This document shows, piece after piece, positions 3,373 to 5,234 of a DNA stretch of 64,000 nt. The stretch is from a virus. Its lineage: Duplodnaviria > Caudoviricetes. Numbering within the stretch: position 1 is the stretch's first letter; each line of letters opens with the position of its first letter. The DNA lies in IMG/VR virus record IMGVR_UViG_3300033121_001593, positions 32,001-96,000 of that record. One strand, written 5' to 3'. The position numbers and the translations under genes were made by a program. The notes beneath the pieces are model-generated. The model had not been told where the DNA came from. It searched no databases and saw only the letters and a list, made by a program, of their open reading frames with translations.

Positions 3373-3447
3373 ACGGGGTTCGTCTAACGATAACGAGGAC
3401 ACAGGAGGTGATTCCTGAGATGCCGGCTCGACGCCGGCACCCCGCCA
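3373..3447 (+). tRNA. Atypical tRNA (His-like, GTG in a 6-nt loop, C73)
   Basis: CGGGGT/ACCCCG acceptor, GTCT..GGAC D arm, CAGGA-GGTGAT-TCCTG, T arm GCCGG-CTCGACG-CCGGC. Confidence 0.55.
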
Positions 3448-3452
3448 ATTCT

Positions 3453-3529
3453 CCCGGCGTAGCTCAGTGGCTAGAGCAACGGTCTCCAAATCCGTTTGGC
3501 GGTGGTTCGAGTCCACCCGCCGTGGGCCA
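3453..3529 (+). tRNA. tRNA-Trp(CCA)
   Basis: Canonical D/T arms, anticodon loop CTCCAAA, G73; one mismatch or bulge in the acceptor; 3' end 3525-3529 depending on register. Confidence 0.88.
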
Positions 3530-3619
3530 AGGTCAAATTGAAACGACCATATTGCGGTGCGGGACGACGACGAAAGTCTAACCCGATCTAAGCGCATTAG
3601 CCCGCACCGCTCAGAGAAC

Positions 3620-3711
3620 GCCCGTCGTCGGGGCCTGGCAATCGGGGCAGACCAAAGCCGCCTCAGGGCCGCATAAATGACCTGCCGCGAACAGCCACCC
3701 CGGCGATGGGC
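3620..3711 (+). ncRNA. Stem-closed RNA module (~92 nt)
   Basis: 14-bp GCCCGTCGTCGGGG/CCCCGGCGATGGGC with G-U pairs. Confidence 0.5.
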
Positions 3712-3779
3712 AAAGAGAGACCGGGTCTCCGCCGGTTCAGACTGGCCGGCATCCCGTGGGCGTCGGCTTCCAAACGCCC

Positions 3780-3862
3780 AGCAGGCCCCCCGATCACCAA
3801 GCCGAAAGCTCCCCTTTTGGGTTGCCCGTCAATGACTAGGCAGAGGTGATCGGGGGCCTGCT
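3780..3862 (+). ncRNA. Stem-closed RNA with bulged C (Y-RNA-like candidate)
   Basis: AGCAGGCCCCCCGATCACC/GGTGATCGGGGGCCTGCT: 6 C versus 5 G. Confidence 0.5.
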
Positions 3863-3877
3863 CAATGAAAGGCCCCT

Positions 3878-4237
3878 ATGACCAAGTCGATCTTGCTGCG
3901 TTACCTATCTAGCCGCGACGACCAGCTTTTTCGTGTCCTGACAGAGATCGTTACCCAACTCGTCGGCCTCAGGCGCGGCCAATCGTCTCAGCAGAGCGCC
4001 ATCGATACACAGACGGCAATGATCGAGACGGCGACGCAGGCCGCCGGTGTATCACAACCCGATACCTGCCTTTTGTGCGGGCGGCGGGCCAACGACGTGT
4101 ACAGCGTAGACGAATTTTTCAAGCTGTCATACGGCCTTTGCTGGACGTGCAGCGCCAAGCCGGCCTCACACGTCATGGCCTGCGACGTGATAGCCCGCCT
4201 GCTACCGCGAGCGACCGTCATGTCACGAAATGCTTAG
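3878..4237 (+). CDS. Hypothetical protein with CxxC..CxxC zinc-ribbon motif
   Basis: GAAAGG upstream; CLLC and CWTC. Confidence 0.6.
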   Translation: MTKSILLRYLSSRDDQLFRVLTEIVTQLVGLRRGQSSQQSAIDTQTAMIETATQAAGVSQPDTCLLCGRRANDVYSVDEFFKLSYGLCWTCSAKPASHVMACDVIARLLPRATVMSRNA

Positions 4238-4244
4238 TAACCAT

Positions 4245-4373
4245 CGCCTGGTAACTTAACTGGCAAAGTCTGCGACGATCCTCACCATAAGGCCAGGGTG
4301 TTCGGCGGTGCACCGCCAGTTCAGCGGCCGGAGGAAAGAAGCGGCGATCTAGGTTCGAGTCCTAGCTGGGCGG
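4245..4373 (+). ncRNA. tRNA-like RNA with a ~67-nt structured extension of the anticodon arm
   Basis: CGCCTGG/CTGGGCG-G acceptor, D arm ACTT-AACTGGCA-AAGT, stacked CTGC/GCGG, TCCTC/GAGGA, GGCC/GGCC and a GGCGGT/ACCGCC cap; T arm CTAGG-TTCGAGT-CCTAG. Confidence 0.7.
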
Positions 4374-4547
4374 CTTAGGGGCGGTTCGAATCCGCCTCGC
4401 TGATCGAGGACAGGCGTGAAGGGAGCCTGGTTCGACTCCAGGTGATTTGAGGCCCGCGGCAATAACCAAAAGGCAAACTCCGGTGAGCAAAGATCAGGCC
4501 GGCCCGGCCTTCAAAGCGCAGGCGGAATCCTGCGCAGGGGCACACTT

Positions 4548-4619
4548 CGCTCCTTAGCTCAGTAGGCAGAGCGCCCGACTGAAAATCGGGAGGCCCTGGT
4601 TCGACCCCAGGAGAAGCGA
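4548..4619 (+). tRNA. tRNA-Phe(GAA)
   Basis: Cloverleaf, CCCGA-CTGAAAA-TCGGG. Confidence 0.92.
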
Positions 4620-4622
4620 CCT

Positions 4623-4739
4623 ATGGAAATACACATCGTTTTGTCACTGATAGCAGTCGCAATGTCTGCAATCGCATTCTGCTTTAACGTCGCGACCGCC
4701 CTAAGAAGGCGGCGGCGCAACAAAGACCGCGCCTTTTAG
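4623..4739 (+). CDS. 38-aa membrane peptide (TM helix plus RRRRR)
   Basis: Manual translation MEIHIVLSLIAVAMSAIAFCFNVATALRRRRRNKDRAF; AGGAG at 4609-4613. Confidence 0.5.
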   Translation: MEIHIVLSLIAVAMSAIAFCFNVATALRRRRRNKDRAF

Positions 4740-4799
4740 CTCAGCGGCAGAGCGCCCGGTGACGACCGGGATACCCTGGTTCGAGTCCAGGAAGGGCGA
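4730..4799 (+). tRNA. Atypical tRNA (Val-like, GAC in a 6-nt loop)
   Basis: Canonical acceptor, D and T arms; CCCGG-TGACGA-CCGGG. Confidence 0.7.
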
Positions 4800-4986
4800 C
4801 AAGCCGAACATCTCACTAGCCGGGAGGGCAGACTGCGCAGGCCCTTGGCGAATATCCTGGCGAACTGGCTTAAGACCAAGTGGGACCGGAAGTGCAACCG
4901 GACAAACTGCGCCAGCCGGCAGGCCAGAACCTTACCTGGACGGGCGACCGTCAACGTGGGCCGGTTCCGCCGCCTGCCGGCCTTGA

Positions 4987-5059
4987 AGCCTCATACCTCA
5001 GCGGTTAGAGGACCCGGCTGATAACCGGGCTGCCCTTGGTTCGAGTCCAAGTGAGGCTA
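4987..5059 (+). tRNA. tRNA-Ile(GAT)
   Basis: Canonical cloverleaf, CCCGG-CTGATAA-CCGGG. Confidence 0.93.
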
Positions 5060-5164
5060 CAAACGGGTGGCAAGCGGAGAGGCGACGCGTAGCCCGACCG
5101 CCCAAGGCCCGCCGGGCTTGTGCGTTCCCAGCCGCGAGTGGCTGCGGGAATGTCACGTCAGGCC

Positions 5165-5234
5165 CGTCCCGTAAGCTCACGGGAGAGCGACGGCAACTTG
5201 CCGTAAGGGTCCGGTTCGAGGCCGGGCGGGACAA
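5165..5234 (+). tRNA. Atypical tRNA with no usable anticodon (5-nt loop)
   Basis: GTCCCG/CGGGAC acceptor, GCTC-ACGGGA-GAGC, ACGGC-AACTT-GCCGT, T loop TTCGAGG. Confidence 0.6.

Follow-up and report, generated by a model that had tools for sequence, protein, structure and literature searches.

We noted that three loci in a phage transfer RNA (tRNA) gene cluster fold as cloverleaves with undersized anticodon loops. They lie on the plus strand of the stretch of DNA analysed here (the window), 64,000 nucleotides (nt) that correspond to bases 32001–96000 of the 143,318-bp IMG/VR virus record IMGVR_UViG_3300033121_001593 (Duplodnaviria; Caudoviricetes), and are termed c1 (3373–3447), X (4730–4799) and c3 (5165–5234). 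The loops are 6, 6 and 5 nt long: GGTGAT in c1 (3407–3412), TGACGA in X (4760–4765) and AACTT in c3 (5195–5199), each carried on a 5-bp anticodon-type stem. An initial annotation of the window had pointed to these loops, including TGACGA together with A73 (position 4799) in X and AACTT in a near-palindromic arm in c3, and all three are confirmed from the sequence. The loops are short in all relatives that carry the elements; therefore, the three loci are very probably selected non-standard RNAs, neither errors nor fresh pseudogenes.

The cloverleaf is the minimum-energy fold of all three elements (z-scores of −2.8 to −3.2), and these folds shrink the loops further, to GUGA (c1), GACG (X) and ACU (c3). 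A 7-nt loop with U33 and a three-base anticodon was found in none of them, either in the window or in any carrier relative. c1, X and c3 are mutually unrelated in sequence and, besides tRNA, no Rfam family matched any of the three.

The relatives were contigs of ENA, Joint Genome Institute (JGI) and Logan assemblies, reached via homologues of three small neighbouring proteins. Close relatives were absent from IMG/VR and from the phage collection when these were queried with a neighbouring protein, exact X and c3-flank patterns and a strict c3 pattern; the terminase relatives in IMG/VR were short fragments. Counting the window, X was found in four lineages, c1 in four, and c3 in eight as well as in the more distant L036 and L038/L039, these being separate assemblies from IMG/VR, ENA, JGI and several Logan runs. 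X and the small open reading frames (ORFs) P0001 and P0002 are variably present among the relatives.

These comparisons bear on whether the short loops are artefacts, with indels introduced into ordinary 7-nt loops during sequencing or assembly. A slip between T and TT in a homopolymer could make TGACGA from TTGACGA. However, the same loops are seen in separate assemblies from different studies, and the window contains an unbroken ORF of 3621 codons; we regard the chance of such an artefact as negligible. The initial annotation had named 7-nt loops in related phages as the observation that would overturn it, and every carrier relative shows a short loop instead. Since loops of the same short length recur in relatives sequenced in different projects, neither assembly error nor recent decay into pseudogenes can account for them.

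That the short loops are kept by selection, as the initial annotation supposed, is seen in covariation of c3 and in c1 stems that stay fixed while the loops vary. The c3 arm (ACGGC-AACTT-GCCGT, 5190–5204; stem 5190–5194/5200–5204) is set in a tRNA-like body with a 6-bp acceptor stem and a C1·A72 mismatch, a D arm (stem GCTC/GAGC, GG in the loop), the T loop TTCGAGG and R26/A44. ARAGORN found c3 solely at a lowered threshold, not by default, and a search of ∼90 nt with the Rfam tRNA model found nothing at E ≤ 10. Four c3 copies were used to train a covariance model (R1), which recovered one copy per lineage in the eight lineages at 55–95 bits, with canonical tRNAs scoring at most 40 bits. Among the seven distinct sequences, 11 of 21 pairs show compensatory changes, distributed across all four stems, and 93.9% of cells are paired. 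None of 500 shuffles reached the observed values, and slid partners paired in only 27–41% of cases. The family keeps the D-loop GG (G18G19), the T loop TTCGAGN, R26 and A44, and the 1:72 position is unpaired in five of the seven sequences.

The c3 loop is 5 nt in every copy, with the form A-N-C-U-W (AACTT, AGCTT, ATCTA and AACTA). Loop bases 1, 3 and 4 and the three base pairs nearest the loop are invariant, whereas loop base 2 occurs as all four nucleotides among near-identical alleles. On these sequences, such free variation fits poorly with a fixed anticodon. The copies are 69, 70 or 72 nt long; therefore, the conservation does not come from an overlapping minus-strand ORF. The minus-strand ORFs at 3127–3597 and 4998–5396 were rejected as spurious, as they cover canonical tRNAs and the length differences of c3 break the frame. 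Between the window and L013, 58 of 70 c3 positions are identical, compared with 103 of 104 and 179 of 186 in the flanking spacers. The stems are of one type in the window, L168 and L034 and of another in L013, L015 and L026, and the alleles do not track the flanks, a pattern that suggests cassette exchange or diversifying selection.

The c3 arm was also found, by pattern scans, in full cloverleaves of two unrelated tRNA arrays: one on the JGI metagenome contig L036, which has 17 tRNAs, and one in the L038/L039 phages, whose array lies in AT-rich sequence (37.5% G+C in the 200 nt surrounding the element). Ascertainment by pattern was biased in favour of this arm and T loop; acceptor stem, D arm and array context lay outside the pattern and therefore provide independent confirmation. 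The Rfam tRNA model scored these copies at 32.4 bits (L036) and 28.2 bits (L038), with five loop bases aligned where seven are expected, and ARAGORN calls the L038 copy tRNA-Arg(cct). When a loose c3 pattern was run over bacterial genomes, it gave 120+ hits, nearly all of them in one conserved Alphaproteobacteria protein-coding gene or due to chance, and none tRNA-like; with a second loose pattern, 8 of 10 IMG/VR hits were false by the c3 model. Elsewhere in the same phages, ARAGORN reports a tRNA with a 4-base anticodon (ttaa) at 3232–3307 of L038 and 4766–4841 of L039, implying an enlarged loop.

Decaying tRNA pseudogenes that hitch-hike in the cluster would be consistent with the fast turnover of phage tRNA clusters, with the coming and going of X, P0001 and P0002, and with the failure of c1 and c3 in standard tRNA detection. 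Decay is at odds, however, with the compensatory changes in all four c3 stems and with c1 stems that are invariant as the loops change. Loop length is also equal in every lineage, and c3 has relatives in two distant phage groups. We therefore consider pseudogenes very unlikely.

Element X is a near-canonical tRNA gene, with a 7-bp acceptor stem, a GG D loop, a TTCGAGT T loop and A73; its arm (CCCGG-TGACGA-CCGGG, 4755–4770; stem 4755–4759/4766–4770) is one base short. It scores 53.2 bits against the Rfam tRNA model (RF00005; gathering score 29) with one loop position deleted, and the default ARAGORN call is tRNA-???(ac), with a 2-base anticodon. X is present in the L028 group (L028/L031/L032/L033; six contigs from six runs), L168 and L170, and the anticodon arm is identical throughout. 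Across the four lineages, two T-loop and two variable-loop bases vary, all four of them unpaired; the p-value of this bias is near 0.02 by a hand estimate. In the window X follows tRNA-Phe and a 38-codon ORF, in L028 it follows tRNA-Phe and 62 nt, and in L168 and L170 its upstream neighbour is a 57-codon ORF; X has therefore survived several rearrangements. It was absent from L013, L015 and L034. Identity to Phe genes is 75–81% and to Ile genes 69–72%. We rejected X as a recent tRNA-Phe duplicate, since its BLAST alignment to the single Phe gene of L013/L015 was due to shared flanks; X is a separate tRNA lineage.

The 38-codon ORF (4624–4740, plus strand), read from the sequence between tRNA-Phe and X, would encode a small hydrophobic peptide, and its TAG stop is U8-A9-G10 of X. 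The 57-codon ORF of L168 (6848–7021) and L170 (∼690–878) is distinct and stops at the same TAG in X, so that the ORF/X overlap recurs in three differing upstream contexts. Both ORFs have hydrophobic stretches that suggest membrane peptides.

The U-GAC of X would equal a Val(GAC) anticodon, and X and c3 could in principle be unusual decoders. X would then be a tRNA-Val(GAC) with G31-C39 opened to give U33-GAC in an 8-nt loop, or would read doublets or promote frameshifting, and c3 would be a reader of AGN codons with the loop C-A-N-C-U-W-G. Consistent with this, X has a U before GAC as well as A73, GTC is the top Val codon of the phage (43%), the other tRNAs fit its top NNC codons, no further Val tRNA was found in the phage, and the L038 copy of c3 carries the ARAGORN label tRNA-Arg(cct). 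However, the predicted folds close the loops further, the c3 ‘wobble’ base, which is A, G, U or C on one body, would switch between Ser and Arg codons, c3 has A at the U33 position and a 1:72 mismatch in most copies, and relatives without X carry no substitute Val tRNA. Departures from the 7-nt rule are known from frameshift suppressors, a yeast mitochondrial tRNA and tRNAs of a phage, and in this the elements resemble them, phage genomes included (PMC5009743). Known natural or selected frameshift tRNAs all have enlarged loops, and the frameshift-suppressor and mitochondrial cases have 8–10 nt, whereas the loops here are reduced (PMC5009743). None of the elements has an 8–10-nt loop, and X would reach 8 nt only if G31-C39 opened. 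Overall, we judge unusual decoding improbable.

Element c1 is cloverleaf-shaped and lies directly 5′ of tRNA-Trp, with its loop on the stem 3402–3406/3413–3417 (CAGGA/TCCTG). The minimum-energy cloverleaf has z = −3.2, and the element is single copy in the genome. ARAGORN found c1 solely at a lowered threshold, not by default, and the Rfam tRNA model gave no hit at E ≤ 10 in a search of ∼90 nt. The elbow motifs of tRNA were not found: the D loop, AACGATAACGA, has no GG and the T loop is CTCGACG. The acceptor stem comprises five conserved pairs and one lineage-specific pair (5–6 bp). The initial annotation had described the cloverleaves as largely intact, which is true of X and c3 and generous for c1. 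Its His-like C73 in c1 is not supported, the relatives showing ACCCC-G-AAA or ACCCC-G-CAA and the acceptor helix having just 5–6 bp, and the GTGA tetraloop of its alternative loop reading is not conserved, being GTTA in L170.

c1 is identical in L013 despite 81% identity of the surrounding block, and is also found in the L028 group and L170. The loop is 6 nt in all copies (GGTGAT, GGTGAT and GGTTAT), and variable columns comprise 3 of 40 paired and 17 of 36 unpaired positions (Fisher p = 1.5e-4). No compensatory pairs were found among the three distinct sequences. The D loop differs in length across copies (11, 8 and 5 nt), and the L170 T loop, TTCGTAA, is nearer to the usual tRNA T loop than that of the window. 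A c1 covariance model (R2) drew no canonical tRNA at E ≤ 1; c1 is therefore not demonstrably a tRNA homologue, and may never have decoded. The initial annotation spoke of three independent losses of the loop. Separate origins are a fair reading, given the unrelated sequences; for c1, a loss is conjectural.

The c1 model weakly matched two further elements, at 7844–7947 of L013 and 5667–5762 of L168 (18.5 and 19.6 bits). They have in common UCGUCUAA...GGACAC and GAGAUG motifs, and a 34–36-nt insert replaces the hairpin with the 6-nt loop, which suggests a scaffold family with exchangeable arms or hairpins. At the c1 position of L015 there is a cloverleaf with a 6-nt loop, CTTGTT; the c1 model misses it, and it is not treated here as homologous to c1.

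The c1 arm contains AGGAGGTGAT (3403–3412), a perfect 10-nt complement of the 3′ tail of 16S ribosomal RNA, which occurs twice in the 143-kb genome against an expectation of 0.19. No change is seen in the arm between the window, L013 and L028, and L170 has AGGAGGTTAT. The AGGAGGTGAT sequence could be a displayed Shine-Dalgarno mimic. A coding role, with this as a Shine-Dalgarno sequence followed by an ATG at 3420, was rejected: the ORF crosses tRNA-Trp, its first 10 codons vary by lineage and the ATG is lost in L170.

The phage genome has an estimated completeness of 97% and encodes a portal, terminase, protease and endolysin. Among cultured phages, the terminase is closest to those of Streptomyces phage TurkishDelight (51% amino acid identity) and Actinoplanes phage phiAsp2 (48%), from which the host is likely an actinobacterium. 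No tRNA above the Rfam threshold and no c3-like element was found in TurkishDelight. The plus-strand cluster occupies positions 1–6300 of the window and contains nine solid tRNAs by ARAGORN and Rfam: Tyr, two Ala, Trp, Phe, Ile, Glu, Asp and element X. Three canonical members, each called by both programs, adjoin the elements: tRNA-Trp(CCA) at 3452–3529, which starts 5 nt downstream of c1; tRNA-Phe(GAA) at 4548–4621, the upstream neighbour of X; and tRNA-Ile(GAT) at 4987–5060, which sits between X and c3. Upstream of the tRNA and tRNA-like genes, a consensus scan predicted a sigma-70-type promoter with a perfect TTGACA-16-TATAAT match (2355–2382, plus strand). No terminator-like site was found on the plus strand from this match to position 6500.

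Such an arrangement raises an alternative in which the elements serve as processing punctuation or scaffold: signals for RNase P and RNase Z, with stabilising folds, would separate tRNAs and small mRNAs (P0001, the 38-codon ORF and P0002) in one transcript, and the arm, irrelevant in itself, would have been reduced to a stable hairpin. Both RNases recognise the acceptor, T arm and elbow, not the anticodon arm, which fits this alternative. It is also consistent with one strong promoter match and a plus strand free of terminators, with small ORFs interleaved among the tRNAs, one of which has its stop inside X, and with the P0002 gene directly following c3 in the window, L013, L015, L026 and L168. 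However, c3 has no following ORF in L028, L034, L170, L036 and L038. Its arm tip (three pairs, A, C and U) is invariant while the other stems covary, which argues for a recognised tip rather than a mere cap, and the short acceptor helix would make c1 a poor substrate for RNase P when compared with the 7-bp requirement (PMC4201824). We regard punctuation as unlikely.

We propose instead that each of the three loci is an RNA gene in its own right, derived from a tRNA or shaped like one, which selection maintains in a promoter-driven tRNA operon and which acts as a non-decoding tRNA mimic, a statement to which, taken whole, we would give slightly less than an even chance. The initial annotation had put forward non-decoding or nuclease-resistant mimicry, or the promotion of frameshifting, as roles, all of them conjectural at present. 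The elements would probably be transcribed together with the canonical tRNAs of the cluster. The 1–5-nt or otherwise short spacers between elements and tRNAs, in one apparent transcription unit, make it probable that they would be released by tRNA-maturation enzymes (RNase P, RNase Z or exonucleases), with CCA added by a host or phage enzyme; X and c3 retain the acceptor, T arm and elbow that these processing and CCA enzymes read. The closed short loops would present neither a normal U33 and three-base anticodon to the ribosome nor a standard substrate loop to anticodon nucleases. Most likely, the mimics would occupy or recruit proteins that recognise the tRNA body, either host tRNA-targeting defence nucleases or the RtcB, Ro60 and CCA-adding enzyme of the phage.

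This decoy or cofactor mechanism, although the leading candidate, is in itself rather doubtful. It is put forward because the phage has genes for RtcB, Ro60 and a CCA-adding enzyme, because more distant relatives have a gene with a PNK3P domain (Pfam; polynucleotide kinase-phosphatase) a few genes upstream of the P0002 homologue, and because phage tRNAs have been interpreted as a means to withstand defences that cleave tRNA (PMC10264068, PMC11555353, PMC11464382). In the genome, the TROVE/Ro60 gene lies at 95.9–96.5 kb on the minus strand (∼63.9 kb onward in the window), that of the CCA-adding enzyme at 115.1–115.4 kb and that of the RtcB RNA ligase at 126.2–127.3 kb. As judged from gene content, the three together point to a conflict over tRNA. 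Extended to all three elements, the c3 family (a tRNA body with an invariant GGC-ANCUW-GCC tip) would form, with X and c1, a new class of phage ‘anticodon-less tRNAs’, purpose-built tRNA-body decoys or cofactors, insensitive to anticodon nucleases, that neutralise host tRNA-targeting defence or guide RtcB/Ro60/CCA repair; we consider this possible, although on balance improbable.

Several points weigh against the proposal. PrrC-type nucleases recognise the anticodon loop, and a decoy would be expected to keep it. The lack of elbow motifs and the 5–6-bp acceptor of c1 could prevent its recognition by tRNA enzymes. Three related lineages lack X, which is therefore, as far as these contigs indicate, dispensable, and X might still decode, given its U-GAC and the prevalence of GTC among the Val codons of the phage. 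Finally, three elements may have three differing functions.

The presence of Ro60 suggests a further alternative, in which the elements are Y-RNA-like partners that tether phage Ro60 to an effector. The phage has TROVE/Ro60 and RtcB, yet no YrlA-type RNA beside Ro60: an RNA-family search around the Ro60 gene gave no YrlA hit and no hit to any other RNA family. In 254 bacteria and 22 phages, YrlA is encoded on the same strand as Ro60 and no more than 4 kb away (PMC4201824). Bacterial Y RNAs are non-decoding tRNA mimics, and the anticodon-like arm of Deinococcus radiodurans Yrn1 has a 5-bp stem and a 6-nt loop; YrlA of M. smegmatis is an RNase P substrate and has CCA added (PMC4201824). Against this, the three elements lie at 35.4–37.2 kb of the genome on the plus strand, ∼60 kb from Ro60 and on the opposite strand, and the long terminal helix carrying the Ro60 site is visible in none of them. 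Binding of a Y RNA by Ro60 would be expected to use such a helix or a GNCGAA motif. The Rfam YrlA model (RF02553) scored 21.8 bits at 3392–3499 and 11.6 bits at 3392–3450, compared with a gathering score of 69, and the match leans on neighbouring tRNA-Trp. The acceptor stem-loop of YrlA is closed, whereas free 5′ and 3′ acceptor ends would be expected here. We think it quite unlikely that the elements are Y-RNA-like.

Compared with canonical tRNA (RF00005), the elements share the cloverleaf and the setting in a phage tRNA cluster; X and c3 have the D-loop GG and a TTCGA-type T loop, and X passes Rfam. They differ in loops of 6, 6 and 5 nt rather than 7 and in the lack of a standard U33-anticodon-R37 presentation. 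The T4 tRNA cluster produces two stable RNAs, species 1 and 2, small non-tRNAs that are co-transcribed and co-processed with tRNAs and that, at ∼120–140 nt, are longer than the elements here. A possible likeness is tRNA-Other of Bacillus cereus, a regulatory pseudo-tRNA that is poorly aminoacylated and found off polysomes; it keeps its anticodon (Trp, CCA) and acts via a T box, whereas the elements here have no usable anticodon (PMC3399842). Phage tRNAs with point mutations in the anticodon loop have been proposed to evade anticodon nucleases (PMC10264068). Those tRNAs keep 7-nt loops and still decode, whereas here the length of the loop is changed (PMC10264068). We found no description of conserved phage tRNA look-alikes with reduced loops in the open-access literature.

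Other features of the cluster were also noted. ARAGORN reports a 97-nt ‘tRNA-Arg(ccg)’ at 4355–4451 without Rfam support. The region 4290–4451 has three successive T-arm-like hairpins (at about 4349–4367, 4379–4396 and 4428–4444), is 95% conserved in L028 and appears to be another non-canonical tRNA-derived element. The inter-tRNA ‘spacers’ at 4801–4986 and 5061–5164 have 96% and 99% identity to L013, above the conservation of the tRNAs themselves; a 42-nt stretch within the first (4922–4963) is unchanged among the window, L013 and L015, and the motif GAATGTCACGTCAGGCC is found upstream of c3 in every related lineage. These spacers probably hold further functional RNA or processing signals. 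The tRNA-Phe of L034 (999–1072) has the anticodon loop TTGAAGC, with G37 and C38, compared with the usual CTGAAAA.

On the comparative evidence, c3 is a definable small RNA family, one that standard tools overlook or annotate wrongly as tRNA-Arg or tRNA-Ser. RNAs that do not decode may lie behind such calls as ‘tRNA-???’ or ‘tRNA-Arg(cct)’ in phage arrays, which should be taken as a warning in annotation. Phage tRNA clusters are now interpreted as counter-measures to tRNA-cleaving immunity, and the tRNAs described in that role so far all decode and differ by point changes in the loop. The RNAs of this phage group, with a tRNA body under selection and the anticodon loop given up, would be direct evidence, by comparison among relatives, that an RNA of tRNA shape can benefit a phage while taking no part in decoding.

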